A DNA stretch of 64,000 bases, taken from the NCBI GenBank assembly GCA_945865375.1, contig CAMBEJ010000004.1, positions 14,650 to 78,649 on the forward strand. The letters are read 5' to 3'. Positions 10,858-60,865 of this stretch are shown in pieces. Numbering within the stretch: the first letter of the stretch is position 1; the number at the start of each line of letters is the position of its first letter. A program made the position numbers and the translations under genes. Source of the DNA: Akkermansia muciniphila (GTDB lineage: Bacteria; Verrucomicrobiota; Verrucomicrobiia; Limisphaerales; F1-80-MAGS106). The notes beneath the pieces were generated by a model. That model was not told the DNA's origin, ran no database searches, and saw nothing but the letters and a program-made list of their open reading frames with translations.

Positions 10858-11594
10858 AAACCCGAGGAGTCTGCACATTGCCAAAACGGATCGCGGTCCT
10901 GGCTGGGTGCATCGTCTTATGGTCCCATTGTTGCATCCTGCCTGTTCTCGGCGAAAAACTGCACCCTGCGGAACAGGCCACGCTGCCTGATGGGGCCCGT
11001 TTCAAGCGGGAAATCGAAGCTTTCCTCTCGAGCGACGCCACCAACTCGCCCGCGAAAAAGGCGATCCTTTTGATCGGCAGCTCGAGCATTCGAATGTGGA
11101 CAAATGTGGCGTCAGACTTTCCAAAACATCGCGTCATCAACCGAGGTTTCGGCGGTTCAGACATTTCGGACTCCATCGCCTACTCGGACCGGATCATCTT
11201 CCCCTACAAACCGAGACTGATCGTGTTCTACGCGGGTGGCAACGACATCAACGGTGGCAAGACTCCTGAGGTTGTCTTGGATGATTTCAAACGGTTTACG
11301 GCCAAGGTGCATCAGAGCTTGCCCCGAGCCAAGATCGCTTACATCTCCATTGCCGGCAATCCGTCCCGATGGGCTCAAGTGGACCGGGTTAGGAAGGCGA
11401 ATTCATTGATAGCGCAATTCGCAAAGTCCGACAAACGGCTTGCCTACATCAATGTCTTCGACCCCATGCTCGGCGAGGACGGCCTTCCCAGACCCAACAT
11501 CTTTCTCAAAGACCGGCTCCACATGAACGAGCAGGGTTATGCGATATGGAAACGGGTTGTAGCACCGTTCCTGGGATCCCCGGATCGCAAGTAA
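10854..11594 (+). CDS. SGNH/GDSL-family hydrolase, exported
   Basis: [27 protein letters not shown]; hydrophobic N-terminus. Confidence 0.88.
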
Positions 11595-11627
11595 TCTGTT
11601 CTGTTCAACCTTGATCCCGCAGTTCAT

Positions 11628-11774
11628 TTAACCGCAAAGAGCGCAAAGAACACATAGAGAATGGGTTGCGAAACACGGTGATTCTTCAAATCATCACCGA
11701 GGAGGTAAGGATCATCCCTCTTTCAGAACTCCACAAGTTCTTGCCTCTGCGTTCTCTGCGTTCTGTGCGGTTAA
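11628..11774. repeat. Inverted pair of REP-like CGCAGAG-type repeats between convergent genes
   Basis: TTAACCGCAAAGAGCGCAAAGAAC... versus ...CTCTGCGTTCTCTGCGTTCTGTGCGGTTAA. Confidence 0.6.
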
Positions 11775-11794
11775 TTCAATGGCTCTTTCCAGGT

Positions 11795-12982
11795 TCAACT
11801 CTGACTCAGCCGCTTCTGGGGTGCTTCGAAGAAACGAGCGTGGGCTTCTTCGAGGATTTGCGGAATCCTCCCGGCAAACGGGCTGCTCGCGATCACCTGT
11901 TGCAAATCGTTCTGGGCGGCCTTGACAGACGCCGCATTCTCTCCCGGGAACCAGTGATCCGCTTGCCCCAGAAGGTTGTAGCGCATCTTTGCCCAACCGA
12001 CCAGATCCAAGGATGTCGCATAGGTCCAGAGGCGCAGGATCTCCGTGACATTGACGCGCCCTGGCACATCGACGTAGTGAGGCAACCCCTCAAACCATCG
12101 CGCGCACCAATCGCTTCCCAATGTCCTTAGCATCTCCTGGCGCCATCCGTTTTCAATCGGGGCAATTGTTTCCGGGATTTGATCGTAATATTGCAGTGCC
12201 GCGACGTGCTCATCGAAGTCCGTCGGGCGGGCCGCGCCACAACTGAGCGTGTGAACCTGAGGTCTGCTGAGGCAGTAAAGGTCGTTGAACTGCATGGGAG
12301 TCAGCGGACGGCACAACGCCACCAGCTTGGCAGGTGGCTCATAGAGTTTTCCACCTTTGTCGTTCGGACTGATGATAAAAAGCCCCATATCCAGGCGATT
12401 CGCCGCCTCCACCGCTCTCCAGTTGAGGTCGTTCACAAAATACCAATGAATATTTATGTAATCGAAGCCCGCGCTCTCCACGGCTTCCAGGATGATGTCG
12501 GTTGTGGCGTGAGTGGAGAACCCGATGAAACGCGCTCTTCCTTCGCGTTGCAATTTGCGGGCAGCCTCGAGGCATCCGCCCTTGCGCAATGCCCAATCCA
12601 GGTGTTCGCGGTTGTTGATGCCGTGAAGAGATAACAGATCCACGTGATCCAGTTGCAAATACTCCATGGACTTCTCGAAGGTCGCCACAAATTCCTCGGA
12701 GCGCGCCATCGGTGCCACCTTGGTCTGGACGATGATCTTGTCACGAGCCACGCGAGGCAGCACCCAACCCAACTGCATCTCGGAAGAACCGTATCCGCGG
12801 GCGGTTTCGATGTGATTAATGCCCAGTTCGAGGGCGCGAAAAATCGTCGCCTCCAGATTGTCCTGTCCTTCCACGGGAACCTCCCCCGGGGACACATCCT
12901 GCCACTTGTGCTGGTAGCGCATCCCACCGCAGGAAATGACAGGCATCCGCAATTCTGTCCGGCCAAATCGGCGATATTTCAT
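11795..12982 (-). CDS. Aldo/keto reductase family oxidoreductase
   Basis: [50 protein letters not shown]. Confidence 0.9.
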
Positions 12983-39295: not shown

Positions 39296-40247
39296 TGCTC
39301 GCAACCTTTCAAATAGGACAGCAGTCCTATTTCGTGTCCTCCGGGTAGAGGTTGAATCAGTTGACCTCCCGGTTCATCGTCCAACGTCAACCCGTGGCTT
39401 TCCGTGATCTGCCGAGTGTTGTTCAGGCTTTTGCAATGACCTAGGTTTCGCCTTAGCCCAATCGGAACGCCGTGCCCATCATGTGGCACCAAACGCCATG
39501 CCAAGTGTCCCGAGTTCTGCTTTGGAAGGCGGACTCTTGATTCATGCGGGGTCATAAGGAAACAGTGTGGCGAATGGGAAGGATAATACTCACTCGAGCG
39601 GTTCGTGCCTAAGAATAAACTGATAGCATTTGGTTTCTGCTAGTCATTTGGTTTCTGCTCGTTTCTTCACAATAGACTGCCCCCCCCCTCAAGGCTGTCA
39701 ACGTCTTTTAATGATTTTTTTTTGCCTGGTGACCAGCGTCGGTGAATTCTCCCGAATGGCGCTTAGTTAAGGCGTATATCTATGAGCAAGAGTGACTTGC
39801 AAAAGCGGTCAAAAACTCTCATGTTTCTCTGGCTTCCGCTGAGTTTTGCTCCTTCACCGACGCAAGAACCCGGTTTTGCAGCCATTTGAGGGCTACCCCT
39901 CGAAAAAACTCGGCACCAACCAAAAAACCTGTTGAAAAACCGGCTGTTTTGCTGGGCCTTATCTAACGCTACAGCGATAGTTCGCGATTTATGCCCATGG
40001 TGACAGGGTAAAAACGCGTTTGGAGCGTGATTTGTTACCCCGACCTGGCGGCGGTCGGCGTTCGCGATGACGCTGGAATTTTAAGCGACCGTTGGCCGAG
40101 CGTTTCTAATTCCGGGGAGTTGGGGTCACTGTTGGCTGCCATTTTTCCCGGAGTCAAACGACATTTTTGACTTACGCCTAGGGTCCTCTCCCCTCACGCT
40201 CAAGGCCGTCATTGAATCGTGCTGGGCCGGAGAAAGAAGCGGTGTGT

Positions 40248-43294: not shown

Positions 43295-46200
43295 CTACAA
43301 CTTCAGCCTGACACGATAAAACTCGGCTGCCGAGTTGGCGCCCAGCGGAATGGGCACCTCGTGCGTCTGATTCGCCGCCGTCGCGCCAATCTCTCTGACA
43401 GACTTCCAGACGCCCCCGAGGATCGAAGAACTCGACTCAACCACATAACCTCTCCCAGCGACGCCGGCAAACCGCAACACGAAATCTGGGCCGACGGCGG
43501 GCACCCGGGCCACATGAACAACTTCGACCCGCAACAGACTTGCCTTGTCCCTCGGATTTGTTCCCGCCAGGAACTCGGCGGCGTTCGTGAACCCGTCGGC
43601 ATCCGGATCGGCTGTGGAACCGCTGATTTTCGAATCTCCCAGCTCCGCGCTCGAAAAATGCCGCGCCTGAAACGCCTCGTAGGAGTTCGCATCCACCACG
43701 CTGGGGCTCTTATGCGCGAGAACTTGGAGGTCAAAACCGACATCGCTGCTCGTAGCACCGGACTGATGCACCTCCGCTGCAAGGGTGTTTGATCCGGGAG
43801 AAAGAAACGATGGATCGACGGTGAACTCAAAAAATGTGGTCTCGTCGGACCCCCCTGTTGTGGCGGGCGCAAGCGTGCCAAACACGATCACCCCTTCGGG
43901 CATGTTGTCGCGCACCACCTCCTTTCCGTTCAAATAGATCACGGCTCCGTCGTCCCGTTGAAGTTTGAATGTAAGCCCGGTGATTCGGTTGGTCTGGGCG
44001 AGATCAAAACGGGCACGAAGATAGGTTGTGATGTATTTCGCCTGTGAGCTCGGTCCAAACCCCACAACGGTGACCTCCCCATCGCCCCCATAACCTAACC
44101 GCGCGTTTCCGGACTTCCACGACCCGTCATCAAAAGTCTTGCTGCGCCATGCTGTCCCCTGATCCGCTCCCGTATCCAGGTATTTCCAAACCGAGCCCGT
44201 CGCAAACAGAGAAACAGTTTCGGGCACGCTCTGAATGTCGACGCTCAGATCGGCCGATTTTTCAAACTCCCCGTCGCCCACGGTGAGCCGAAGCCCATAG
44301 ACGCCAGCCGAAGAGAACCGCGCTACAGCAACGGGCAATGAATCGTCCTCGAAAGTCACCAATCCGGGCGCCGACACCACCGACCAACGCACCGTCAACT
44401 TTCCAGGAGGGGACGGAAGCCCGTCATCGGTGACTCGTCCCTGTAGTGTCACTGAAAAAGGGAAGGCATTGGTCTGAACCGACACCGAAGGCCCGGGGCT
44501 GACGATAGGAGGCCGGTTTCCGGCCGCGTCAAACCCAGGGGTCGGCTCAAAAACGGCCCGCCAGTTCCTGGGATCGTTGGCGTATTCATCCAACTTGATC
44601 CGTTGGATCGACCCGCCCTGCCCCGCCTGAAACTCCGGCCAAGGCGCACGATTGTCATAGCGGACGCTATCGACCGCGACGTAGGGAACCACGATGCCGC
44701 TGGCTGTGACTTCCGACGGTTCTGGCCGTTGAAGCTCAAGCAACTCGCCACCCTGGGACAAAGTGCCACCAATAGCTGAAAACACTCCCACAGCAGCGGA
44801 GATCCCATACCGGTTGCGGACGTAAACCGCGTCGGCGGTCGTCACCAATGCCAGACCCTTAGGCGGTAGCACGATGCCCGGCGGAAACACAAATCCGAAC
44901 CCTTCAAGTCTCCAGGCATTGGTCGGCGCCTGGGTGTCAAAGAGCGCGACGGGCGAATCCGTAATGTTCTTGATCTCAACGAAACGCTCCTCCCCTGGAG
45001 CAGGCAGATACCGGATCTCCTGAATGACAACGGGGCCCGCGAACGGCCCCGCATTCGCGGCCCCGAATGAGCTTCGGACCTGGGCCGGATAGGAGACCTT
45101 TCCGGCGCTGTTGGTGTATCGGCCAAATGAAACCCCGTTCGCCGCCGCTCCAAAGGCAAAGCCGTCGCTATAACCCGTCAAGTTGCCCAGCGAGTTCGCT
45201 GAAAAAAGAGCGACTTCCTCCCCGTGAGAACTCAGGGTGAAACTCGGATCGACCCCTGGTTTTGGATTGAAATCCGCCTCAGTCACTACCAGAAATCCAC
45301 CCGGTGCGATGACAGATTTCGGGGGAAACCGAAATTTCGAAGGCTCCCGCCGATCGTCAGTCAAAAACCAGAAACTGATGTCGGCCGGTTCACTGCCCGA
45401 GTTCAGCAACTCGATCATGTCAATTTGCGGAAGGTCAGTATGAGTGAGTATCTCGCTGATCACCACTGGAGCAATGGAGGCCTCTGGATCGGAGGAACCG
45501 GGGGATCCTCCTACCGAGAAACTCGCCCTCCAACCGGAAGGGTCGCTGAGGGGCATCCCAGGGAGCAAGCGACGCGGCACCAGGGAAAAACCCGAACCGT
45601 CAGCCGACTCAGGCCAAGGCGCTGAATCCTTGTATTCCAACGAAATGACAGAGATTCCAGCGGCATTCACAAGAGTGATTCTCTCCCCGGAGTTGCTCAA
45701 CTGACCCGCAAACACACCGTCGATGCGGACGGTGGGATATTTCCGTGCGAACCCAGCGGCATCTCTGACGAGTACCACGAAGCCATTGGGAGCCAGCTTG
45801 ATTCCGAAAGGAAACGCAAACTGGAGACCTTCCCTGAAGTGGGCGCCGCTCAAATCCAGCTCTTGGCCGGACACATTCTGAAATTCCAAAAACTCGTGCT
45901 CCTGGCCGTCTGTTGAGGGCGTTAGCAGGGGATTATACATTAACTCGGTGAGCCGCAACCCGGTTAGATCCTGAACGATGTTGAACGATACCTCGGCAAT
46001 GGCGCTCCAGGTCGTTCCGTCGTAAGCCCGCGCTTTGATGCGAACACTCCGGTCCAACTTGAGCGCAGACTGATAGACCAAAGCATCCGCCCCCACGGCG
46101 CCACCCAGATCTCTCGGATCGCTGCCATTCATTGTCAAGTAAACCGTGGCTGTTGAGGCGAGTTCCAACGAGGTCCCTGGAGGCACACTCCCTCCCGGCA

Positions 46201-48397
46201 GATTGAAGCCGGGAGCGGCAACGCGGGGATACAAATTATCCACTTTCAACTGGTTCAGGACCATGTCGGAGCGCCGTGAAATAAAGGTTCCAAGGACCGT
46301 GTTGCAAGCCTGAAGCCACGTGTCACGGGTGAAAGGCACACCCGTTTTGGCATCCCCCCATCGAGCCGACTCACCCACAACAGCTCGGTCAATCTCCTTC
46401 ATACGGGCGATGAACCGGTTCGAACATGCCAGGGCCGTCAACGCACCTCCATTGAAAAAATGACGCTGCACGTGGTCCGCCACCAACATTCTGAATTCGC
46501 TGTTCGCCTGCATTTTTTGCCAGACCCATTGTGGGTTGCTCTTGTTCAAAACGTTGCCCGCAGAATAGGGCCCCGTTCGGTCCTCGTTCACATTGAGCAG
46601 CGTGTGCTCCGCGTCATGCGCAAAAAAGCGGAACCCACCACTGGTCCCGGTTCGATCACGCATCGCGTAAAAATTGTTCGGCGAGGTGTTCCCGAGAAAA
46701 TTGGAGATGGGCGCGTCAAGGTTTCCTCCATACAAAATCACAAGCATGTAATCGATCAGATTCGGAACATCCACCAGGTTCTCCAGCGCGGCATTGACCT
46801 TGCCGTCGATGTCGCGTCCCTGGACTTTGAAATAGGCTTCGTTGGAGCTCAACCCAGCGTTCGCCTGTGTCCATAGGCGTGTCCACGCGGCCATGTTTCC
46901 GTCCGTGGCGTTGATCGTGTAAGATCCCGCCTCCACTTTGATGACATCGTAGTTTTCCGCTTTCCCGCCAAAATAGGTTTCCCCAAAGGAAGCCTCCGGT
47001 CTCTCGCATGTGTTGAACAACCCCCAATATTGCCCGTTGATATACAGGTGATAATAATCCCCTCGCTCCCCCTGGCTGCCCATCGCCAACTGGGTGTCGC
47101 GACAGAATTGATCCCGTATGAAGACGCCGCGAGAATCGCCCTGAAAACTCCACGAATAATTCTGAAAGGTTCGGAGATCGATCGCGTTAAAGGCATCCGC
47201 ACCCTTTCCCCCAAACAGGTCATACCGCAGGGTCGGATCACCGTAGTCTTCCCTGAAAAAGAATCGAAAAGCATGTTTCGGATTGCCCGTGCTCCGGCTG
47301 AAGCCGCCCCGAATCCGAATCCCGGAGTTGATTTGGAACCCCTTCTTTCCATCAGGATAAATCAGCTCCAAAGAGCAGCCTCGTTCCCAAGCCCGGCCGT
47401 CCTGTCCTGGGTTCGCGTAGATTCCCCGGCTCGAATCGAAAAGATCGTTCAGATTCATCACCACCGAAAACGAAGGGAGCGATTTTAAATCGCGGGTGAT
47501 CGTGCCGCTGAACTTTGGATTGTTCACCACATCCGGATCCATCCCGTAGTCCACCGAGTTGGCTCCCCATCGCGCCGGCCAACCTGCTGATGGCTTGCCG
47601 TCAGCGGACTGCCGGATGATGTCTCCCACAAACAAATAAGTCTCGGTGTCGACATTCGACGACCGATACCCCTCCTTAAACGCCGCCGCTCGCAGCACGG
47701 TCGTCCGCGCCACAGGAATTGGGCTCAGATAAGTGAGCCCATTTGTGAGGCTCGGGAGGGTTCCGTTCAGTGTGTAGCGGATCACAGCGCCTTCCGTTTC
47801 GCTCCAGATACCAAGCTCGAAAGGCGCCTCGAAAAAACCCCGGTCATGGGAAAATTTTGTGTCCTTGACCACCGCCAAAAAACCTCCGGCGTTCAACGCG
47901 CCGGGAGTGGGAGGTGTGAGGTACCCCACATCAAATACGCCGTCCGCTCTCTTCAACCTGCCATACGAGACATCCCGAAGCTGTTTCGGAAACTGCGGCC
48001 CGAATTCCGAGGAAATTGTCTTGCCGTCACGCCCCACCAAGGCCAGATACTCCCCATCGGATGCCAAACTAAAATTGGTGTGCAGGGGTTTCGCCGGATC
48101 CCGCCGATCCTTACCCGAAGCGAACACCACCAACCGCCCGCCCGCCGGGAGTGTGACGTTGGGAAACCGCCATAACATCAGATCGGTTGCGGAATCGGTC
48201 AGATACCAACCGTCCAAGCCCGCTGAACTCTGGGTTGAGTTCTCAATCTCTATCCAATCAACGAACTCACCGTTCTCATCGGCAAGCGTGTTCCCGTTGC
48301 TGGCCATGAATTCGGAAATGCTAATTTGCGCAAATGCTTGAAAGGCGAACAAGCTCAGGACGGTGTAGGTACAAATAAGTTTCACTCGGGGCAGCAT
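43295..48397 (-). CDS. Large surface protein with lamin-tail domains, CotH kinase-like domain, Ig/PKD-like domain and C-terminal FYRV-type domain
   Basis: ISEFMASN...DWIEI, IRIRGGFSR, YINGQYWGLFN, FFAHDAEH, ESARWGD, repeated lamin-tail domains, DPDADGFTN...FYRVRL. Confidence 0.88.
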   Translation of the reverse strand: MLPRVKLICTYTVLSLFAFQAFAQISISEFMASNGNTLADENGEFVDWIEIENSTQSSAGLDGWYLTDSATDLMLWRFPNVTLPAGGRLVVFASGKDRRDPAKPLHTNFSLASDGEYLALVGRDGKTISSEFGPQFPKQLRDVSYGRLKRADGVFDVGYLTPPTPGALNAGGFLAVVKDTKFSHDRGFFEAPFELGIWSETEGAVIRYTLNGTLPSLTNGLTYLSPIPVARTTVLRAAAFKEGYRSSNVDTETYLFVGDIIRQSADGKPSAGWPARWGANSVDYGMDPDVVNNPKFSGTITRDLKSLPSFSVVMNLNDLFDSSRGIYANPGQDGRAWERGCSLELIYPDGKKGFQINSGIRIRGGFSRSTGNPKHAFRFFFREDYGDPTLRYDLFGGKGADAFNAIDLRTFQNYSWSFQGDSRGVFIRDQFCRDTQLAMGSQGERGDYYHLYINGQYWGLFNTCERPEASFGETYFGGKAENYDVIKVEAGSYTINATDGNMAAWTRLWTQANAGLSSNEAYFKVQGRDIDGKVNAALENLVDVPNLIDYMLVILYGGNLDAPISNFLGNTSPNNFYAMRDRTGTSGGFRFFAHDAEHTLLNVNEDRTGPYSAGNVLNKSNPQWVWQKMQANSEFRMLVADHVQRHFFNGGALTALACSNRFIARMKEIDRAVVGESARWGDAKTGVPFTRDTWLQACNTVLGTFISRRSDMVLNQLKVDNLYPRVAAPGFNLPGGSVPPGTSLELASTATVYLTMNGSDPRDLGGAVGADALVYQSALKLDRSVRIKARAYDGTTWSAIAEVSFNIVQDLTGLRLTELMYNPLLTPSTDGQEHEFLEFQNVSGQELDLSGAHFREGLQFAFPFGIKLAPNGFVVLVRDAAGFARKYPTVRIDGVFAGQLSNSGERITLVNAAGISVISLEYKDSAPWPESADGSGFSLVPRRLLPGMPLSDPSGWRASFSVGGSPGSSDPEASIAPVVISEILTHTDLPQIDMIELLNSGSEPADISFWFLTDDRREPSKFRFPPKSVIAPGGFLVVTEADFNPKPGVDPSFTLSSHGEEVALFSANSLGNLTGYSDGFAFGAAANGVSFGRYTNSAGKVSYPAQVRSSFGAANAGPFAGPVVIQEIRYLPAPGEERFVEIKNITDSPVALFDTQAPTNAWRLEGFGFVFPPGIVLPPKGLALVTTADAVYVRNRYGISAAVGVFSAIGGTLSQGGELLELQRPEPSEVTASGIVVPYVAVDSVRYDNRAPWPEFQAGQGGSIQRIKLDEYANDPRNWRAVFEPTPGFDAAGNRPPIVSPGPSVSVQTNAFPFSVTLQGRVTDDGLPSPPGKLTVRWSVVSAPGLVTFEDDSLPVAVARFSSAGVYGLRLTVGDGEFEKSADLSVDIQSVPETVSLFATGSVWKYLDTGADQGTAWRSKTFDDGSWKSGNARLGYGGDGEVTVVGFGPSSQAKYITTYLRARFDLAQTNRITGLTFKLQRDDGAVIYLNGKEVVRDNMPEGVIVFGTLAPATTGGSDETTFFEFTVDPSFLSPGSNTLAAEVHQSGATSSDVGFDLQVLAHKSPSVVDANSYEAFQARHFSSAELGDSKISGSTADPDADGFTNAAEFLAGTNPRDKASLLRVEVVHVARVPAVGPDFVLRFAGVAGRGYVVESSSSILGGVWKSVREIGATAANQTHEVPIPLGANSAAEFYRVRLKL

Positions 48398-48460
48398 AAG
48401 TCGGATTTTATAGCACAAGAGGTGCCATCATTCCTGAATAAGCCATGGCGCAGCCGAAGC

Positions 48461-51001: not shown

Positions 51002-52417
51002 CTACCTGGCCGGGACAGGCGCCTGCGCGGGGGGTGTGGCTCCAGGTTTATCAGCCTGTTCGATCTGCGTTTCTCCCTGGAAAAGCGCGCGAAATCTGCC
51101 GAATCTCCGAAGATCGAAGAAGGTCACGTACAACATAAACGAGATCAACAGCACCGCAAAAGCGGTCGTTGTATATTCCTGAAACCGCGCGCCCAAGGGG
51201 CGTCGGCGCACCGCTTCAATAAGAGAAAGAAGAATGTGGCCTCCATCCAGCACCGGAACAGGCAGGAGATTCATGATCGCCAGATTGATATTCAACAGCA
51301 CCAGAAAACTCAGCGCCAACCGGTAGTCCTGATGAACTTGGGAAGCCAATATCGCCAGGATGCCGACAGGTCCGCTGAGATCCTTGGCCCCCACCCCCGT
51401 CTGCTTCGAATGCCAGAGAGCGCTGATGGTTTGAACGGTCTTGTCCCAGACATCGGAGATCTGAGCCCAGGGAGTCGGGCCCGGCCGTTGCTCCTTGTAA
51501 AATTGTTTGGAGCTGTTGCCGAGAGCCACACCGATCCGCCCAATTTTCGCCGCCGGATCTTCTTTCGGGGTGATCTGTTTGGTGAGCTTTTCCTTGGCAC
51601 GTTCGATCTTGATCTCAGTAGCCTGACCTCCGCGCTTCTTGATGAGGCCGATGAGCTGTTCGCGGCTATAAATAGGAACGCCGGCGAACGCCAAGATGAC
51701 GTCCTTCGACAGAAGGCCAGCCTCCGCCGCAGCACCGTCTGCTTGGACATCGATGACCTCGGGATGACCCTGGGGATTGAGTTCCAATAATTTTAAACCG
51801 TCGATGGCTTCGCTGGCCTTGGCGGTCAATACGAAAGTCAGGCGTTTCCCCTGCCGCTCCATCACGACAGGCAACAAATAGGTCCTCGCCAGAGCCGTCG
51901 TGGTGTTCACATCGAACCACGATTTGACGGGCTTTCCGTTGACCTCGACGACCACGTCGCCTTCGCGAACACCCGCGAGGTACTCGGGCGATGACGGTTC
52001 GACAAAACCCACGATCGACGGGTCCACCATCACAGGGATGCCGGCAAAATAGATGAAAACCGCGATGGCGAACGCGAAGACCACGTTCATGAACGGCCCG
52101 GCAAAGGCCACGAGAATCTTGTGTAATGGTTTCGCCGGCGGCACAGCCTCCCCTGTGCCCCCCCCTTCCAGGGCCTCGGAGGTGATCATTTGGGGGAGCT
52201 TCACGTACCCTCCCGCAGGGATCCAACGCCAAGAGTATTCAATGCCGTCCTTGGTCCAGCCAAAAATCTTGGGACCGAACCCAATCGCAAATGCCTCGAC
52301 CTTCATGCCACAACGGCGTGCGACCCAATAATGCCCAAATTCATGGACGAAAATGGCTGCCCCGAACAGACATATCACCGCGCCGACCACGTAAACGATA
52401 TTAAACAATTGTTCCAT
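51002..52417 (-). CDS. rseP: RIP metalloprotease with two PDZ domains
   Basis: HEFGH, AGPFMN, NLLPVPVLDGG. Confidence 0.95.
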   Translation of the reverse strand: MEQLFNIVYVVGAVICLFGAAIFVHEFGHYWVARRCGMKVEAFAIGFGPKIFGWTKDGIEYSWRWIPAGGYVKLPQMITSEALEGGGTGEAVPPAKPLHKILVAFAGPFMNVVFAFAIAVFIYFAGIPVMVDPSIVGFVEPSSPEYLAGVREGDVVVEVNGKPVKSWFDVNTTTALARTYLLPVVMERQGKRLTFVLTAKASEAIDGLKLLELNPQGHPEVIDVQADGAAAEAGLLSKDVILAFAGVPIYSREQLIGLIKKRGGQATEIKIERAKEKLTKQITPKEDPAAKIGRIGVALGNSSKQFYKEQRPGPTPWAQISDVWDKTVQTISALWHSKQTGVGAKDLSGPVGILAILASQVHQDYRLALSFLVLLNINLAIMNLLPVPVLDGGHILLSLIEAVRRRPLGARFQEYTTTAFAVLLISFMLYVTFFDLRRFGRFRALFQGETQIEQADKPGATPPAQAPVPAR

Positions 52418-52507
52418 GCGAATTCTATGCCGATCCACGGCACGCTCTGGAATCTATATTCGACCCCCTAAAGATGCAACTTCCGTTCCATACTGAACAA
52501 GGCCGAC

Positions 52508-53817
52508 TCAGAACAAAAAGGAGTATCCCGCAGAAATAAGATGCACGTCAAACTCATAGCGCCCTCCAAAAATAGCATTATCCAAGGGCGAAATGGTCCG
52601 CGTCTCGTAGAATATCTTCCCGTAAGAAACTTCAAACCTGTGTTTTCCACAACGATACGAGAAGCCGGTCGTCAGCGCGTGCTGATTCGAATCAGGAATC
52701 ACGGGCGAGAAGGTCCGGTCTGGAACAGGCGTTTCATAGTATTGATAGCCGGCCCGCCAACTCCACCCATCCCCGAGGTCCCAATCCCCCGCCAAGCCGG
52801 CTGTGAATGTGTTTCGCCATTCCTCAGCGACAATCCGGGAGGGGAGCAAAGCATTGTTCACACCGATGTCCAATGGCGGCGCGTCAAACCTGGAAAACTC
52901 AACCCATTCACCGCTCAGCTCTAGGCGGGCCCGATGACCCAACCGAATCCCATAACCGACCCCCACAATATTCGGGAAACCCACTTGGGTCTTGAAGGGG
53001 CTGTGATCCGAAAATCCAAGAGCCCCCGCCTCTGTTGGAAAGTGGCTCACATGGAAATCCCCGCTGTAATCGATGTCCGTCATGGATCGGTAGCTCAGCG
53101 CCAGCCGGTGCCCCTCCGCCAGGTCCCAGGATGCGCCGACAGTCACACCCACCCCGGTCCCATCCCCTTTTAATGCCGCCAACCCCTCAGGCTGCGCCGG
53201 ATTTTGCGTCACCAGCGCCCAGGGGTAAAACTGGCGGAATTGGATCTGTGACCAATACAGATTTGCCGCAACCCCAACCTGCACGCTCTCACTCACCTTG
53301 TAAGCCACGGCAGGCGAAGCGCTCAGGGTGATCAGTTCGGCGAAGTGCGCCGTCGAATAATGCAAACCGCCCTGTGGATTCCACTCGCTCGAAACACCGT
53401 ATGGGGTCGTCAACCCCACGCCAAACGCCCATCGACCCCCGGGTCCCTGGTTCGGAATCGCCGCAAAAACATTGGGGAAAAAATTCCAGGGATGCTGGCT
53501 TCGCTCAACGCCTCCGACCCCTCCAGCAGAAGCATAATCCACGCTCGCATAAATCATAGTCGGCGCAAAATCGACCTCCGATTCCCTCAGATCGACCAAA
53601 TTCGCGGGATTATGGGCGACGGCGCTGGCATCCTCCACGTGCGCAAAACGGCCCCCGGCTCTGCCAAGACCAAACCCTCCCACCGGAGGGTTACGAAAGC
53701 CTTCCCCAACCGCGCTGACGGACAGAACGCAGAGGATCAACCCCGCAGCGCACGCCCAAATAGATTGCAGCGATTGGGCTCTGGAAGGACACGTTCGAAA
53801 AGGAAGTGTGGTTTCAT
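52508..53817 (-). CDS. FadL/OmpP1 long-chain fatty-acid outer-membrane channel; ATG 53817 is out of frame by one base
   Basis: GRAGG...EDASAVAHNPANL, GVGLTTPYG, PVIPDSN, terminal Phe. One extra A after ATGAAA yields a signal peptide MKTTLPF...VSAVG. Confidence 0.88.
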
Positions 53818-53996
53818 GAGTTCAGAATCCATCGTCCGCCACGCCGCACCGCATGGCAAGAAAAAGACTATCCAAGTATCCCAATTTCCATTATTCCATC
53901 AAACCAGCTGCGGGTTTGAACCAGAACAAAACACTCCTGTTCCGCCCTCTTGGAATAACGCCAAGGCTCGACGGCGTGATGGGGCCTTTGTCCGCT

Positions 53997-55434
53997 ATGG
54001 ATAGTAAGCTAACAACAAACCTGGGTGAAAAGGACAATTTCATCGTCTTTCTCAACAGCCAGGGTGTCGAAGCCCGACGAACCCTCCTTCGCCTCACGCG
54101 CTACCTTGCAGTCTTCGAAGTCTACAATCCCTACAGCATTTTGCAGATGTCGGAGGTGCTCGGAGAGTTCCGAATCATCGTCAACGACCGGATGATCTAT
54201 TCCGGCAGGGGCATCGTCAGCAACTTGGTCAACACCGGCATCCTGCTGGTTTGCGAGGCCACTCTCGACGAATCCTGGCTCGATGTGAATCTCTTCTCGC
54301 CGGTAAACAAAACAGGGAAGCTTCGGGAGACATTTGGCGATTTTTTCACGGAATGGAAAAAAAAATCTCACCGTCCACGCGGATTATAAAGTGGTGGTGT
54401 CGGACGTGCATAATTTTTTCGTCGACCTGCGTCGGTGGCTCGATCAAGTCGAGATGGGCATCCGGTCAGCCGCCCAGGGAAACCGGCTTGAGATGGAGAA
54501 GGAAATCATTGCGCAGCTTCGCACTTCCATCCTGCCGGCCCTCGATGAGCGGTTCGGAGAATTCGACCTGGTTTCGCGGACGATCGACAAAGATCTGGAA
54601 CCCCTGCATCGAAACTATGTCAAGCGGCAGCTCCATCCACACGTCCTCTGCTCCCCGTTCGCCTACAGGACTTTTCGGAAGCCACTGGGTTACGCCGGCG
54701 ATTACGAGATGGTGAATATGATCCTGCGCGATCCGCACGAGGGAAGCACGCTTTTCGCCAAGGTGCTGAACGTTTGGCTGCTCGATCAACCCAGCGCCAG
54801 GGCGCACCGAAACCGCGCGATATTTCTTCAAAACGCTCTCACCATGGAAACAGAACGCTCCGCCAGCCTCGGGAGGAAGGCCCGGATACTCAACCTGGGG
54901 TGCGGGCCCGCCATGCAGACACAGCGATTTATCGAACACTCCGGGAGTTCCGACCACGCCCATATCAAGCTCCTCGATTTTAATGACGAAACCCTCCTGC
55001 ACACCCGCACAACTCTCGAAACCCTCCGATCCCGCTATCAACGATCCATCGTGATCGAAACGGAGCAGAAATTCGTCCACCAGATCTTGAAGGACTCGGG
55101 GCGCCCCGTGAGGCCGCCGCGCGAAGAGCATTACGACCTGATTTATTGCGCCGGACTGTTTGACTACCTAAGCGATCGAATCTGCAAGCGTCTCATGAAC
55201 TATTTCTACGAGTTCCTGGCGCCTGCCGGTCTCCTTCTGGCCACGAATGTGGACTCCTCCAACCCCAATCGCCATTGCATGGCCTATATCCTGGAATGGC
55301 ATTTGTTCTATCGAAGCCTTAAAGAATTCGCCTCGTTCAAGCCCGACGCCGCACCGGACTCGAGCATCTCTGTCGAGGCCGATGATACGAACGTGAACAT
55401 TTTTATCAAAGTCCGGAAACCGGATGTGGCCTGA
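53997..55434 (+). CDS. PhcB-like class I SAM methyltransferase; one extra base in the A9 run at 54357-54365
   Basis: KPLGYAGDYEMVNMI, ARAHRNR, ILNLGCGPA, DLIYCAGLFDYL; A8 joins the two ORFs into 478 aa. Confidence 0.8.
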
Positions 55435-58044
55435 AAAATCAACAAGGCTCAAGGAGCCGGAGTTCCGGGAGGCGTTCGAGAAAAACGAGCGTCGGGTACG
55501 GATTCGCACGGACAAACTTGCGTGTCTGCTCACCGTGGTTCTCATGCCGCTGGGGATTGCCCTGGACAGGGTCGTTTATCCCGAGGATGTCGGGTTCTTT
55601 TTGAAGCTGCGGTTGATCTGCTCCTTGATGGTGGGCGTGGTTTGGGGGCTGCATCACACGTCCTGGGGTGGGCGCCATTACCCATGGATTGGCCTTCCAA
55701 TGGTCTTCTTTCCATCTTTTTTATCGCTGTCATGATCGCCTGCACCGCTGACCCCGCAGGATCCCCTTACTACGCCGGGCTGAGTCTCATCCTGCTGGCT
55801 GTCAGCGCGGTAGGCCACTGGACCCTCGCTGAATCCGTCATCTCGTTCGTTGGGATCATGGAGTTCTACTCCCTCGCCTGCCTCATGCAAACCACCTCAG
55901 TGAGCAACCCCATGTTCCTGAGCAACCTTTATTTTTTGAGCCTCACAGGGATTATTGTCATCACCGGAAACTACCTCTACAACCGGCTCCTATTCAGCGA
56001 ATTCGAGCTCCGTTTCGAACTCGCCGAGAACAGGAGGCTCTTGGAGGATAACAACCGTAAACTTGTGGAACTGGACAAAATAAAGAGCCGCTTCTTTGCG
56101 AACATCAGCCATGAGCTTCGAACTCCTCTGACCCTGGTTCTTGGACCGCTTGAAGCCTTGCGGCGACACGGCTCAACGTTGCCTGCACACAGTGTCACAA
56201 CGCATCTCGACACCATGTGGACCCACGGCCTCGGATTGCTCAAACTCATCAACGAGTTGCTCGACCTAGTCCGGCTGGAATCCGGAAAAATGGAGCTCCA
56301 CTTAGAGCCTGCGGACGTCGTACAGTTCGTCAAGGGCTTGGTGAACTCTTTGCAAACCGCAGCCCGTGAAAAAAGGATCACCCTCGAATGCGTCACCAAC
56401 GAGGGTGCCGGATGCCTCCTCATGGACCTGAACAAATGGGAACGGATCCTCCTCAACCTCCTCTTTAATGCCCTCAAATTCACAGCCTCGGGCGGCCATG
56501 TTTCCATCTCGGTGGCAAAAGTGGCAAGCCGATGCTTCATCGAGGTGAGCGACAGCGGGATCGGTATCAGCAAAGATCATCTCCCGTTTGTCTTCGACCG
56601 ATTCTGGCAGGCGGACACCTCAGCAAGCAGGAAATTCCAAGGCACAGGGCTCGGGCTCGCCATGGTCCGGGAATTGGTCGAGGTCCAGGGAGGCTCCGTG
56701 ACCGTCAAGAGCGCTCTTGGTCAGGGAACCGTTTTCACCGTTTCCATGCCCTGGGAAAGCGCCGACGCGTCGCCGTCCCCCGCAGTGCGACTCACTGAAA
56801 CCGGCCTCTCGCCAGAACGTTTCAACTCCCTGGCAAGCCGGGCTCAAGTCACTCCGGGTTTCGGCGCCTCCATGCTGGAGGTGGAGACGGGAATCAATCC
56901 ACTCAAACCATCCGTGCTGATCGCGGATGACGAACCGGACATGTTGCAGTTCCTCCGATCCATGCTGAGCCACCGGTTCCAGATCATTGAGGCTGTCGAC
57001 GGCCAGCAAGCTCTCGAGAAGGCGGCCCAATTTCTTCCGGACGTCGTGATCCTAGACATGATGATGCCTGAAAAGGATGGCCTGCAAGTCTGCCGGGAGC
57101 TCCGGGCACGAACGCCCACACAAACGATCCCGGTCCTGCTCGTCACCGCGAGAGCCGATGATGAAACCAAACTGGCCGCCCTGAGCGCGGGCGCGAATGA
57201 CTTTATCTCGAAGCCCTTTTCAACCACGGAACTGCTCGTCCGTGCAAGCAACCTCGCCCAGTCTCATCAGCTCCAGAAAATGCTCACCGCTCAGAACCGC
57301 AAGCTGGAAGCGACCCTGGATCAACTCAAGGAAACTCAAACGCAGCTCGTGCAGAGGGAAAAACTCGCATCCCTCGGCCGGATGAGCGCGGGCATCATCC
57401 ACGAGATCAACAACCCTTTGAATTATGCCACCACGGGAGTCTTCAACCTCCGCACGTTTTCTTCGAAGCTCCCCCAAGCAGAGTCAGACGACTTCGACGA
57501 CACGCTGAGGGATGTCACCGATGGACTCGAGCGAATAAAACAGATCATCTCGGACTTGGGAACATTCACCCACCCTGACAACCTTCGGCGCAGCCCCCAG
57601 AAAGTACGCGCTCTTGTGGAAGCGTCCTTGCGCCTTTTGTCTAGCGAATGGAAGGAGAATATCCTCATCCACACGGACGTCGATGAGCCCATCGAGATTG
57701 ATATCAACGGCAACCAGATCACTCAGGTCCTCATGAACCTCATCCAAAACTCCTTCGATGCGCTCAGAAGCCAAAACACGACTGATGCAGCCGTGACCAT
57801 CACGGCTCGCGACCTCCCTGACCGAGTGCTGCTCTCGGTTCGGGACAACGGCCCGGGCATCCCGCAGGAAAACCTGAACAGGGTGTTCGATCCTTTTTTC
57901 ACGACCAAAGAAGTCGGGGCGGGAATGGGACTCGGACTCAGCATCTCCTTTAGCATCATGCAAGAGCATGGGGGAAGAATCATGGTGGAAAGCCGTCCCG
58001 GGCACTTCACGGATTTCACCTTGGATTTCCCAAAAAAGATATGA
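55424..58044 (+). CDS. PhcS-like membrane hybrid sensor kinase (TM-HK-REC-HK); one base short in the T6 run at 55717-55722
   Basis: Multi-TM sensor with SPYYAGL; ISHELRTPL kinase; receiver LDMMMP; second kinase IIHEINNPL with DNGPG and GMGLGL. Confidence 0.85.
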
Positions 58045-58140
58045 GAATGAGGCCTCGACTAAAGTTTTCCTAAACCATCCGGGCTATGTGCTGATGCCTT
58101 TTTTCCCAGGATGGGCTGGTGTGCGCGGCACGGAAACATT

Positions 58141-59406
58141 ATGTACAATTTCTACGACTACAAACGATATGTAATTCTTTACGTGGACGACGAAGTCCAG
58201 TCGCTGAACCAATTCACCAAAGCCTTCGAGAAAACATTCCGGATCCTGACCGCAGGCAACGTCAAGGATGCCATCGGGTTGCTCGAGGAACACCGAATGG
58301 ATATCGGTATTCTCATTACGGATCAGCGTATGCCTGGTGAACAGGGCGTCCGGTTGCTTGAGCAGGCCCGTCAGCTCCAACCGCGGGTCGTCAGGATTCT
58401 GACCACAGCCTACTCCGACCTGGATGCCGCCATCGAAGCCGTCAATGCGGGTGCCATCTACCGTTACATCCACAAGCCGTGGGATCCGCCGGAGCTTGAG
58501 TCCACCCTGCGCCGAGCGATGGAGTTCTTCATCGTCCAGTTTGAACGCGATCAACTGCTCCGCGAAAAACTGTCCGTTTTGCACAAAATGATGATCACAG
58601 ACCGCGTGATCAGCCTCGGTGTGCTCGCGGCAGGGATCGGACATCACGTCCGCAATTCCCTGGTCGCGGTCAGGACATTCCTCGACCTTGCGCCCTCCAA
58701 ACTGAACGAAGAAAACCTGAATCTCGACGAACTTCGCAACCCGAATTTCTGGATTGATTTCTACCAGCACGTCCTGTCGCAGGTCAACCGGATCACCTCC
58801 CTCCTTCACACCCTCGAAACCGCACCGAGTTTTGCCGGCGGCCCGTTCACCGACCATGTCAAACTGAGGGATGTGCTCTCCGCCGCCGCCGACACTGTCT
58901 CGCTGAGGCTTGCCGAAAAGGAGATCGTCCTCATCGGAAATATCCCGGATGACATTCCGGAACTGACTGTGGACAACAAAAAATTCACCCGTTTGTTTGA
59001 AGCCCTGCTGGAGGATGAAATCACTATTCTCCCTCAGGGAGCAAGGATCGAAATCACAGCTAAAGCCCTGACTCTCCCGGAAAATGAGGAAAAATGGGTT
59101 CAGATCGAAATCCGTGACGACGGCCCTGGGCTGCCAGAAAATTCCATCAGGGCGATTTTCGATCCGTTCTTCATTCGGGCTGACCAGCCGAAGGAGTTCG
59201 GCCTCAATTTGATGACATGCTATTTTATCACCTACCACCACGGCGGTGATATCGCGGTGGAAAACAACCCGGGAACCGGCGTGCTTTTCCGCTTAAAGTT
59301 CCCCGTAAACCCGAAGCCGATGGATCCGTGCGACGAAGAAAAGCACTTCCTCTCAAAAGCGCTCATGAACGAAGTTCTATGGGAGCGCCTTCTCGCAGGG
59401 AGCTAG
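58141..59406 (+). CDS. PhcR-like response regulator (receiver plus degenerate kinase domain)
   Basis: LYVDDE, ITDQRMP, KPW; then GHHVRNSL and DDGPG, but the N-box reads LFEALLEDEI and the G2 box EFGLNL. Confidence 0.82.
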   Translation: MYNFYDYKRYVILYVDDEVQSLNQFTKAFEKTFRILTAGNVKDAIGLLEEHRMDIGILITDQRMPGEQGVRLLEQARQLQPRVVRILTTAYSDLDAAIEAVNAGAIYRYIHKPWDPPELESTLRRAMEFFIVQFERDQLLREKLSVLHKMMITDRVISLGVLAAGIGHHVRNSLVAVRTFLDLAPSKLNEENLNLDELRNPNFWIDFYQHVLSQVNRITSLLHTLETAPSFAGGPFTDHVKLRDVLSAAADTVSLRLAEKEIVLIGNIPDDIPELTVDNKKFTRLFEALLEDEITILPQGARIEITAKALTLPENEEKWVQIEIRDDGPGLPENSIRAIFDPFFIRADQPKEFGLNLMTCYFITYHHGGDIAVENNPGTGVLFRLKFPVNPKPMDPCDEEKHFLSKALMNEVLWERLLAGS

Positions 59407-59590
59407 ACTTGATGTCAACTCATGAAAGCCATGTCCGCCTCTCAAAAACTCTCACTCTCGGAGCAAAAACGCGCCGTCAAGATCGGGTAGGGGTGGCAAT
59501 TCCGCCCTCTTCAGCGCGGGAGAGGAGGTCGTCGCGCGACGGTCTTGCCCCCCGGTTCAACCCGCCCACGGTTCGGAAGGCTCCCCTTGA

Positions 59591-60301
59591 TCAGTCCCGT
59601 TCCCGGCCGCCGCGCGCCAACATCAGGAGTTGCAACAGTTGCAGCACGGAGGCCACCAGGCCCGCCACGTAGGTCATGGCTGCCGCGCTCAACACAGCAC
59701 TCACCCCCGGCGCTTCGCTTTGCTGAATCAAGCCTAGCTTCGAAAGTTGTTCCTTGGCCCTCCGGCTAGCGTCAAATTCCACTGGCAACGTCACGAGTTG
59801 AAAGAGCGTGATGATGGAAAAAATCGCGATCGCAAGGCCAATCGCCATCGGGAAAAACTTCGGGATGATCATCCCTAAAACCAAAATCCCCATCCAAGCC
59901 ATGCTCGCAAACTGAGTGGCTGGAACCATAAACATCCGGAAATGCAGCGGAGCGTAGGCGGCTTTATGCTGCAACGCGTGACCTGCCTCATGCGCTGCCA
60001 CCCCGACAGCAGCCAGGGATGTGCTGTGGTAATTCTCCGAAGACAAACACAATTGCCGCCTCGTCGGGTCGTAATGATCCGTGAGATGACCTTGAACCTC
60101 CGAGACAGGCATGTCGCGGAGCCCTGCCCGGTCCAGAATCTCCCGAGCCGCCTCCGCGCCGGTGATCCGTGATAAAGTCCCCACTTGAGAGTATTTCTTA
60201 TACGTCGAGCTCAGCTTGATCTGCGCGTAAAAGCCCAACAACATCCCCGGAATCGCAAACCACCAATAATCCGCGAACAAGAATCCAAACATAGCTGTCA
60301 T
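59591..60301 (-). CDS. Membrane zinc metallopeptidase (YugP-like)
   Basis: GHLTDHYDP, AAHEAGHALQH, TLPVEFDAS, AAAMTYVA. Confidence 0.92.
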   Translation of the reverse strand: MTAMFGFLFADYWWFAIPGMLLGFYAQIKLSSTYKKYSQVGTLSRITGAEAAREILDRAGLRDMPVSEVQGHLTDHYDPTRRQLCLSSENYHSTSLAAVGVAAHEAGHALQHKAAYAPLHFRMFMVPATQFASMAWMGILVLGMIIPKFFPMAIGLAIAIFSIITLFQLVTLPVEFDASRRAKEQLSKLGLIQQSEAPGVSAVLSAAAMTYVAGLVASVLQLLQLLMLARGGRERD

Positions 60302-60485
60302 AGTAATTCCAATTGTCTCGATTGCTGAAACTGCCACGGGCATCGCATTCTCGCGACGCGCACTCTGACCACCACCATAACACAAATCATCCTGAAGGCA
60401 AAAATCAGCGCGCTCGCGCCCCCAACAGCTCTCAGTTTGGCCGCCACAGTGGGGTAGACCTCCACTGCCAGTCGTGGGGCTCTTC

Positions 60486-60865
60486 CTCTGAACTGAGCAA
60501 AACGACCCTGTTTAGCCTGATCCTCGAGCAACTCCAATTCCCTGCTCCTAATCCTAATCCTAATCCTACTCCTAATCCACCCCTCCGTTTCAAGGGCAAC
60601 ACCAGAGGATTAGATTCTTAAATCCTAAGTCTCGGTGAATTATCTCTCAGATTTTGAACCACAGAGCCACAGAGGCACAGAGAAGAACAGTTAATGAACC
60701 CTAACTTCTTTCCACCCAGTTTTCCCCCTCTGTGCCTCTGTGCCTCTGTGGTTCAAATTTCAAATCTTTTTGGCTAGGATTAGGATTACGATTGCGATTA
60801 CGAAAAATGGAGGAATTGGGGTTGCGCGTCCAGATCACGATTTCAACCGATTTTACTAAGGTCTG
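60486..60865. mobile_element. MITE-like family A, long composite copy
   Basis: Same left and right ends as 48995-49206, with an internal ACCACAGAG / CTCTGTGGT inverted module. Confidence 0.72.

Follow-up and report, generated by a model that had tools for sequence, protein, structure and literature searches.

A Phc-like, FadL-linked gene cluster in a lake verrucomicrobium, probably a decaying form of the Ralstonia signalling module

A stretch of 64,000 nucleotides of verrucomicrobial DNA, hereafter the window, contains three plus-strand genes which, as judged from their sequences, are genuinely homologous to phcB, phcS and phcR/phcQ of Ralstonia, transcribed divergently from a gene for a FadL-family outer-membrane channel. 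The reading favoured here, with a probability of roughly 0.6, is that the locus represents a verrucomicrobial form of the Ralstonia Phc signalling module provided with a FadL gate, which is decaying in the population concerned. In Ralstonia, PhcB makes methyl 3-hydroxymyristate or methyl 3-hydroxypalmitate, PhcS senses this signal, and PhcQ and PhcR relay it to PhcA. The accessible portions of the literature found attribute Phc signalling to Ralstonia and the closely related genera Cupriavidus and Paraburkholderia, and a literature search for Phc signalling in Verrucomicrobia gave nothing, in agreement with the original prediction, which knew of no characterised example in this lineage. Verrucomicrobia and Planctomycetota are, to our knowledge, almost unexplored with respect to quorum sensing.

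On the minus strand, the main frame of the FadL/TodX-family channel (PF03349) occupies positions 52508-53740 and encodes 410 residues when read from a TTG at 53740, while its probable original 5' end, with an ATG at 53817, occupies 53741-53817 in another frame. A divergent spacer of 179 bp (53818-53996) leads to the plus-strand genes. The PhcB-like methyltransferase consists of a 5' part (53997-54365), which encodes the N-terminal beta-barrel domain and extends through a run of nine A residues (A9, 54357-54365), and a 3' part (54366-55434), which encodes a helical domain with KPLGYAGDYEMVN followed by the Rossmann SAM domain. The PhcS-like hybrid kinase is likewise divided into a 5' part (55424-55722), containing the start of the multi-TM sensor domain, and a 3' part (55723-58044), containing the rest of this domain followed by HisKA-HATPase-REC-HisKA-HATPase; a T6A stretch (55717-55723) lies at the junction. 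An intact PhcR/PhcQ-like receiver-kinase of 431 residues, made of REC, DHp and HATPase domains, completes the row (58111-59406). [quoted passage not shown] The original prediction had described a methyltransferase overlapping a hybrid kinase, a receiver-kinase next to it, a FadL gene divergent across 179 bp, and the order and domain types of phcB-phcS-phcR; all these parts were recovered, the spacer length being exact if the FadL and methyltransferase genes start at the ATG codons 53817 and 53997, respectively. It also spoke of repaired proteins, the parts of which are indeed present, but this wording conceals real frame breaks in the methyltransferase and the kinase.

Pfam assigns the methyltransferase to the class I SAM methyltransferases (Methyltransf_12/25), and the KPLGYAGDYEMVN segment is encoded at 54679-54717, within the open reading frame 54334-55434. 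Read through with an X at the break, as the 478-residue protein used for the PhcB comparison and for the tree, it aligns over its full length with PhcB from Ralstonia chuxiongensis (36.6% identity, 464 columns, E 7e-111). A same-genus methyltransferase (P0003), whose residues 1-122 are 88% identical to the 5' part of the window gene, shares 38% identity with PhcB over 459 residues. The N-terminal beta-barrel, the middle helical and the Rossmann regions are common to the verrucomicrobial methyltransferase and PhcB in the alignments, and in 10/10 aligned verrucomicrobial and Burkholderiales sequences the motifs for SAM binding and those of the middle domain do not vary. GCGPA, the acidic residue of LLDF and YCAGLFDY, unchanged in all ten, and either unchanged or conserved to 90% or more in a set of 93 sequences, are readable in the window ORF. 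Equally invariant in the ten is an arginine that aligns with R22 of PhcB; the part of the source available describes the mutation R22C as adaptive and as falling outside the methyltransferase domain, and R22 as conserved among the Ralstonia, Cupriavidus and Paraburkholderia homologues (PMC6989110). Many close homologues are named by JGI as 3-hydroxypalmitic acid methyl ester biosynthesis protein (PhcB-type). In an unrooted FastTree phylogeny of 142 rows, a branch with 99* support separates 16 Burkholderiales from 18 verrucomicrobial rows, the Planctomycetota representatives being nearer the Burkholderiales side. The placing inside the Burkholderiales PhcB clade, which the original prediction had chosen as a test, was thus not obtained: with only about 37% identity to PhcB, the window methyltransferase falls in a clade sister to it within the family, so its substrate and product may differ.

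The ATG of the kinase, at 55424, overlaps the stop codon of the methyltransferase (55432-55434). The 5' part of the kinase is 70% identical to the start of the kinase of G002, a same-genus relative used as intact reference, and the 3' part is 75% identical to this intact 879-residue kinase. Pfam recognizes two HATPase_c stretches, two HisKA stretches and a Response_reg domain, and the translation shows two candidate phospho-accepting histidine boxes, SHELRTPL and IHEINNPL; the phospho-accepting histidine of PhcS is given as H230 in the accessible part of PMC11960443. In the kinase of the intact relative, about six hydrophobic spans precede the HisKA-HATPase-REC-HisKA-HATPase array. The sole genome-wide match of this sensor domain is the N-terminus of PhcS, in Ralstonia (E 9e-18) as well as in Cupriavidus (E 2e-12), and a profile-profile comparison with hhalign confirms the homology (probability 100, E 4.6e-41, 216 columns). 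The verrucomicrobial kinase differs from PhcS in having two kinase cores and an internal REC domain, an extra HisKA-HATPase-REC block found in 11/14 relatives, the other three displaying the short PhcS-like form.

The receiver-kinase, which contains REC and HATPase_c domains according to Pfam and no DNA-binding domain, matches PhcQ best in the Ralstonia and Cupriavidus genomes, followed by PhcR, and both PhcQ and PhcR in turn match it best in the window's genome, so that reciprocal best hits are obtained. Profile comparisons with hhalign extend over 365 columns for PhcR (E 1e-50) and 188 columns for PhcQ (E 3e-46). Verrucomicrobial loci possess one or two full receiver-kinases, in contrast to the PhcR and degenerate PhcQ of Ralstonia. 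With the full-length homology to PhcB and the sensor match to PhcS, these hits bear out the kinship with PhcB/S/R that the original prediction had proposed to check by reciprocal searches. It also remarked on the absence of a PhcA-like LysR gene from the vicinity; no LysR or other DNA-binding output gene was found near the locus, another difference from Ralstonia, and none of the eight PF03466 (LysR_substrate) matches in the genome lies on the window's contig.

The association of these genes is largely preserved within the order, where the methyltransferase occurs in 24/40 genomes. The kinase follows it directly in 20/20 loci, often with overlapping stop and start codons, and the receiver-kinase comes next in all 16 loci with enough flanking sequence. 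A FadL gene lies within about 4 kb of the methyltransferase in 17 of the 24 relatives, is not adjacent in six and is lost to a contig end in one, which agrees with the synteny expected by the original prediction; among 80 Burkholderiales phc loci, FadL is adjacent in one. Strong FadL matches occur in 22 of the 24 genomes with the methyltransferase versus 6 of the 16 without it, and the FadLs of these six form one separate group (support 91). The lack of FadL linkage in 6/24 relatives and a kinase architecture unlike that of PhcS accord less well with the favoured reading, as do the separate clade of the methyltransferase, the presence of a single FadL-family gene in the genome and the lack of a nearby DNA-binding output gene.

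In the intact relatives, the PhcB-like SAM methyltransferase would, from the properties of its family, act on a fatty-acyl precursor to give a methyl ester of hydrophobic character, predicted to be a 3-hydroxy fatty acid methyl ester or a closely similar compound. The conserved linkage and the known function of FadL suggest that the channel would pass this ester across the outer membrane, FadL channels being described, in the available part of the source, as allowing the lateral diffusion of hydrophobic molecules across this membrane (PMC7728783). Detection of the ester would be expected of the kinase in the inner membrane, through its six-span sensor domain, which is homologous to that of PhcS. 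Phosphotransfer may then proceed from this hybrid kinase to the receiver-kinase resembling PhcR/PhcQ and also, in the many relatives that have one, to a second receiver-kinase. In the window's population, the signal would be neither made nor sensed, or at leak level only.

The latter expectation derives from the state of the reading frames. G002 possesses intact genes for proteins of 434, ~478, 879 and 434 residues, together with a gene for a 442-residue REC-HisKA-HATPase protein. By comparison, the methyltransferase of the window has one additional base in its A9 run (54357-54365) and the kinase one base fewer in its T6A stretch (55717-55723), breaking both frames. Contigs from runs X1, X5 and X6, belonging to three studies, match positions 53600-56000 with neither a differing letter nor a gap (word depths of ~21, ~20 and ~7, respectively), which places the frameshifts in the DNA; since the window may have been derived from these runs, which carry a flag to this effect, the agreement stands for reproducibility across runs and assemblies and not for independent populations, and it is based on contigs, which hide minority alleles. 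A truncated methyltransferase product of 346 residues (P0001) is on record from 9 contigs. A third frameshift probably affects the signal-peptide region of FadL: the frame opened by the ATG at 53817 reaches a TGA after 26 codons, out of frame with the main ORF, which has no start codon upstream of the TTG at 53740, and a start at this TTG leaves only about 12 residues ahead of the conserved GEGFRNPP, whereas the leader of 40 residues in G002 is encoded in a single frame. This break is given as probable because the 5' region has diverged too far from G002 for the indel to be placed. The second receiver-kinase of G002 was not found in the window's genome, which is 93.6% complete. With at least two genes frameshifted and this fourth gene absent, the window copy is probably not a working system, and a Phc-like module decaying in the window's population is the most likely interpretation of these sequences. 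The receiver-kinase is still intact and 83% identical to that of G002, so any decay is recent or partial.

It is conceivable, though rather unlikely, that the locus still works, the frameshifts being bypassed or the homopolymers serving as on/off phase switches. Both breaks lie in homopolymer tracts, broken alleles were observed in runs dated 2020-2022, and the intact receiver-kinase downstream also fits this possibility. An A9 run could permit some transcriptional slippage, by which RNA polymerase might bring some of the transcripts back into the methyltransferase frame. Only the loss of one A from the transcript would be of help here, as ribosomes slipping by -1 on this run would be led into the wrong frame. 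In the kinase, T_TTT_TTA in the upstream frame conforms to X_XXY_YYZ, and a -1 slip there would give a product of the same length as in G002 across the junction, while FadL could start from the TTG at 53740. An RNA-library contig of run X10 spans 54177-54405 with the same A9 run, a weak hint as such libraries can hold DNA. Against such bypasses, no stable structure follows either site (z-scores of +1.51 and +0.04 versus shuffles), and G002 lacks both tracts at these places, which indicates that they are not conserved recoding signals. Moreover, three hits in one locus and the loss of a fourth gene resemble decay.

Somewhat less probable still is a function in the sensing and handling of external hydrophobic compounds instead of cell-to-cell signalling in this lineage. 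FadL would then import fatty acids or similar compounds, sensed by the kinase and modified by the methyltransferase for detoxification, storage or volatilisation. The window's FadL, which matches PF03349 Toluene_X over profile positions 3-412 of 421 (E 3e-49, 168.1 bits for a curated cut-off of 29.7) and is 74-77% identical to the intact 434-residue FadL of G002, stands alone in the genome as a PF03349 match, as expected for a general uptake channel, and could thus serve as a general fatty-acid channel. Of the dedicated outer-membrane route envisaged by the original prediction, the FadL linkage is kept in the lineage, but a dedicated role finds no support in this genome. Lipid-handling genes also occur at some related loci (a short-chain dehydrogenase in 6/20, an alpha/beta hydrolase with an LPG_synthase_C-like gene in 2), and the separate clade of the methyltransferase points in the same direction. 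However, the synthase, the sensor and the receiver-kinase each have a homologue in a system whose kinase takes as its ligand the product of the methyltransferase, according to the accessible parts of PMC8578825 and PMC11960443, the methyltransferase and kinase genes are paired without exception in the loci surveyed, and fatty-acid degradation genes were not found as conserved neighbours of these loci.

That the frameshifts are sequencing or assembly errors, the genes being intact in the organism, is very improbable. Every suspected break is situated within or next to a homopolymer, a classic error site, the genome is a draft of 266 contigs and the window may itself stem from the runs used for confirmation, but the separately assembled X1, X5 and X6 contigs agree without a gap and the truncated P0001 product recurs in nine contigs.

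A complete synthase-sensor-relay set, regularly tied to FadL, is common in one verrucomicrobial order and represents a concrete candidate, open to testing, for signalling between cells of bacteria that abound in freshwater and soil. The broken copy of the window, from a lake verrucomicrobium, would, if indeed decaying, offer a natural case in which such a system has been lost in the field. As the carriers include the cultured Verrucomicrobium spinosum and a Prosthecobacter species, experiments are possible. More tentatively, Phc-type methyl-ester signalling, for which at least 1,259 protein clusters were counted at E <= 1e-30, might be no speciality of Ralstonia and Cupriavidus but old and widespread in Verrucomicrobiales and Planctomycetota, with FadL as signal gate, the Burkholderiales being one branch and lake populations including lineages with a recent loss of both production and sensing.

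Alpha-hydroxyketone systems, such as CqsA/CqsS of Vibrio and LqsA/LqsS of Legionella, also combine a lipid-derived hydrophobic autoinducer with a six-span membrane kinase, and the synthase gene lies beside the sensor gene, as in the present locus. Their synthase is a PLP-dependent acyl-transferase and that of the window a methyltransferase. Rhizobial FadL homologues reportedly aid the perception of long-chain AHLs, the fadL gene of Sinorhizobium not being known to belong to the signalling operon. The likeness resides in a FadL-family channel for a hydrophobic quorum-sensing signal predicted here to cross the outer membrane poorly; the signal of Sinorhizobium, though, is an AHL from a LuxI-type synthase, and the channel gene is here linked to synthase and sensor genes. 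The link of FadL with long-chain AHLs in Sinorhizobium appears in the available part of PMC9938287. Outer-membrane crossing of the hydrophobic signal is not addressed in the accessible portions of the Ralstonia literature found, and the FadL linkage suggests how a very hydrophobic signal could achieve it. The FadL/TodX/TbuX channels, which admit fatty acids and monoaromatic hydrocarbons, share the PF03349 family but are linked to catabolic pathways, in contrast to the methyltransferase and two-component genes of the window. Within the spacer between the FadL and methyltransferase genes, where neither a sigma-70-like promoter nor an Rfam match was found, a 20-nt block (53856-53875), unique in the genome, is identical in G002, and an inverted repeat of 10+10 nt is located at 53899-53919.

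The region 52508-59406 contains four genes, one on the minus strand and three on the plus strand. A FadL/TodX-family outer-membrane channel (52508-53740, minus strand; PF03349, E 3e-49) is followed on the plus strand by a PhcB-like class I SAM methyltransferase, which starts at ATG 53997 and carries the motif KPLGYAGDYEMVN at 54679-54717 (Pfam and ORF translation), by a kinase (ATG 55424) whose 5' end overlaps the stop of the methyltransferase, and by a receiver-kinase of 431 aa (58111-59406) made of a REC and a kinase-like domain. The kinase consists of a multi-span hydrophobic N-terminus linked to the domain series HisKA-HATPase-REC-HisKA-HATPase. The spacer between the divergent genes measures exactly 179 bp, given ATG 53817 for FadL and ATG 53997 for the methyltransferase, and the methyltransferase, the multi-TM hybrid kinase, the receiver-kinase, the divergent FadL and this spacer are all present where the original prediction had placed them. 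The flanking genes, an RseP-type protease (51002-52438) and a zinc peptidase (59591-60385), both assigned by Pfam, are not part of the unit: RseP occurs beside none of the loci of relatives, and the zinc peptidase is kept only in the same-genus genome. No Rfam match was found in 52000-60500, and a scan of 53650-54100 for promoter and terminator sites gave none. A 20-nt block of the spacer (53856-53875), identical in the same-genus genome G002 and unique within the genome of the window, and a 10+10-nt inverted repeat (53899-53919) located 24 nt further downstream and partly kept in G002, are possible candidates for regulatory sites. Elsewhere in the window, a 1,711-codon open frame occurs at 43295-48427 (minus strand).

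By identity, profile comparison and reciprocal best matches, the putative synthase, sensor and relay are demonstrably homologous to those of the Phc system and share its gene order, as had been proposed from their likeness to PhcB, PhcS and PhcR. Many close methyltransferase homologues in JGI bear the name [quoted passage not shown], and the PhcB name has already been given to homologues by automatic annotation. The named Burkholderiales loci, reached via a match on a Paraburkholderia plasmid, include that of Ralstonia chuxiongensis, with phcB (470 aa), phcS (442 aa), phcR (368 aa) and phcQ (335 aa). Written with an X at its break, the window methyltransferase comprises 478 aa and is 79% identical to that of G002; in the same form it shares 36.6% identity over 464 columns with the R. 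chuxiongensis PhcB, the similarity beginning in the N-terminal domain and reaching the C-terminus. The SAM-binding and mid-domain motifs are invariant across the aligned verrucomicrobial and Burkholderiales sequences, as is the Arg found at the position of PhcB R22 in the alignment (R22 and R154 were compared by own alignments, in the numbering of another Ralstonia species). R22C has been reported as an adaptive mutation of PhcB outside the methyltransferase domain, at a position conserved in the homologues from Ralstonia, Cupriavidus and Paraburkholderia (PMC6989110). The sensor domain of an intact relative's kinase finds its sole match in Ralstonia and Cupriavidus genomes in the N-terminus of PhcS (profile-profile probability 100, E 4.6e-41, 216 columns). 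In these genomes, the receiver-kinase has PhcQ as best match and PhcR as second, and PhcQ and PhcR queries each retrieve it as top match in the genome of the window. It aligns over its whole length with the PhcR profile (E 1e-50) and over the REC domain and linker with the PhcQ profile (E 3e-46), PhcQ and PhcR being paralogues of each other (profile E 2.5e-84).

The placement of the methyltransferase inside the PhcB clade did not hold. It belongs, on sequence grounds, to the PhcB family but outside the characterised PhcB clade, because a branch with a support of 99 splits 18 window-order sequences from 16 Burkholderiales PhcB sequences in an unrooted FastTree tree of 142 full-length rows. In the same tree, Planctomycetota-named representatives are nearer to the Burkholderiales side. 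The family comprises 5,675 clusters of 50% identity at E <= 1e-3 and 1,259 at E <= 1e-30. The AlphaFold model of the same-genus methyltransferase (pLDDT 93.5) combines an N-terminal barrel of six strands with a long helical domain and a Rossmann domain. A PDB fold search with the whole model retrieved only generic class I methyltransferases and gave no functional lead, the best match being 3ocj, an uncharacterised Bordetella protein (TM 0.61 by target). A likeness by eye of the N-terminal β-barrel to PilZ was dropped since no PilZ match was found: in a scan of 93 family members at E <= 1, the 25 families with the most matches, out of 70 Pfam families, do not include PilZ, and the 178-aa N-terminal ORF has no Pfam match.

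Within the order of the window, 24 of the 40 genomes carry the methyltransferase, leaving out a 25th genome with a weak match of 22% identity; in the rest of the phylum, only 6 of 300 sampled genomes do (E <= 1e-30). The kinase directly follows the methyltransferase in all 20 fetched loci, and the receiver-kinase follows the kinase in all 16 loci with enough flank. Linkage to FadL is likewise conserved in the lineage, as had been anticipated: 17 of the 24 methyltransferase-bearing genomes have a FadL gene no further than about 4 kb away (10 divergent, 7 co-directional and upstream); in six it is elsewhere or absent, and one case is cut by a contig end. Among 80 Burkholderiales phc loci examined out of at least 588 methyltransferase-encoding loci, FadL occurs within 7 kb in only one, from a Methylotenera genome. 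A strong FadL match was obtained in 22/24 genomes with the methyltransferase versus 6/16 without, a descriptive count taken over relatives that are not independent. In the FadL tree, the six FadLs of methyltransferase-less genomes form a single group (support 91), and the linked FadLs are spread over at least three clades. The FadL of the one Methylotenera locus, from an uncultured member (L091:12001-13314), has a long branch and is placed beside the clade of window-type FadLs with a support of 83. Since the FadL of the locus is the only PF03349 member in the genome of the window, it may also take part in general uptake.

According to the mechanism proposed here, the methyltransferase would make a hydrophobic fatty-acid methyl ester, which would cross the outer membrane through FadL and be detected by the six-span sensor domain of the kinase. 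The FadL step is supported by precedents, FadL channels having been described as allowing the lateral diffusion of hydrophobic substrates (PMC7728783) and as having a role with long-chain AHLs (PMC9938287). On the output side, the relay proteins are devoid of a DNA-binding domain, and the contig of the window contains no LysR gene, which agrees with the earlier remark that no PhcA-like LysR gene is nearby. Compared to Ralstonia phcBSRQ, the closest known system, the locus differs by a methyltransferase of a different clade, a hybrid kinase, full receiver-kinases, a FadL partner and the lack of a PhcA link. Literature searches found no report of a Phc-type system in Verrucomicrobia or of FadL tied to a Phc signal, and nothing relevant on phcB in metagenomes or freshwater among the papers listed. 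The main worth of the finding is that of a lineage-wide lead; it is worth less as a single locus, because the window copy is broken.

The methyltransferase leaves its starting frame (that of 53997) at an A9 run (54357-54365) with one base more than in G002, and the kinase leaves its own (that of 55424) at 55717-55723, with one base fewer. The ATG 53817 of FadL does not share the reading frame of the main ORF, whose only other start is a TTG that leaves a leader of 12 residues; the leader has diverged too far from G002 for an indel to be placed. The genes of G002 are whole, i.e., FadL (434 aa), methyltransferase (about 478 aa), kinase (879 aa) and receiver-kinase (434 aa), and are accompanied by a second REC-HisKA-HATPase gene (442 aa) at 11553-12881 of its locus L013, of which no copy was found in the genome of the window (93.6% complete). 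Separately assembled contigs from sequencing runs of three studies (X1, X5 and X6) show no difference over 53600-56000, and a contig of the RNA-library run X10 crosses the A9 run unchanged; as these runs are marked as potential sources of the window, they show the breaks to be in the reads, not to be common to unrelated populations. The RNA-library contigs cover 53921-54405 and 55340-55490 only, and expression elsewhere is not to be inferred from the gaps. Programmed frameshifting found no support, stable RNA structure being absent after both breaks. Leaky expression through the A9 run and a T_TTT_TTA heptamer is possible, but decay is judged likelier than any bypass of the frameshifts in the genome of the window, because of the two to three breaks, the loss of the second REC-HisKA-HATPase gene, the lack of a stimulatory RNA structure and the absence of homopolymer tracts at either break site in G002. 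A Pfam scan of 10 overlapping open frames elsewhere in the window revealed no split domains and was uninformative, 8 of the 10 having no Pfam match at all. Other long homopolymers of the window are C9 (13487-13495), C8 (32729-32736), C9 (39680-39688) and T9 (39715-39723), together with a C8 run (52158-52165) inside the RseP-like ORF, which stays one open frame.

Depending on the relative, the locus is accompanied by additional genes. In 6 of 20 loci (L017, L018, L020, L027, L028 and L032; adh_short E 7e-51, e.g., L020:5602-6561), a short-chain dehydrogenase/ketoreductase gene is found next to either FadL or the methyltransferase; its product could provide or modify a 3-hydroxy or 3-oxo group on the presumed signal. 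The window has no such gene at that place. In L023 (5906-9393) and L019 (4021-7479), an alpha/beta hydrolase, an LPG_synthase_C-like protein and an OprB-family porin are encoded just upstream of the methyltransferase; G036, the genome of L023, gave no FadL match, so the OprB-type porin may replace FadL there. The second REC-HisKA-HATPase gene follows the first in many relatives (L013, L015, L022, L023, L026 and L028) and is separated from it by a REC-GAF-PAS-kinase gene in L023, L026 and L028; the window lacks both. A phcB-phcS-like pair also occurs on the 494-kb conjugative plasmid pPHS1_P of Paraburkholderia graminis (432595-436970); after the pair come a receiver of 134 aa and a PhcQ-like regulator of 344 aa, and upstream of it is a cyclopropane-fatty-acyl-phospholipid synthase family gene. 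Cultured carriers of the methyltransferase exist in Prosthecobacter, with a protein 54% identical to that of the window, and in Verrucomicrobium spinosum. In the latter and two Verrucomicrobium strains, residues 180-649 of a 668-aa "response regulator" (cluster of P0216) match the PhcB-like methyltransferase profile, and the N-terminal 180 residues presumably form a receiver domain, going by the name given at source; such a fusion, if true, would place signal synthesis directly under phospho-control in Verrucomicrobium.
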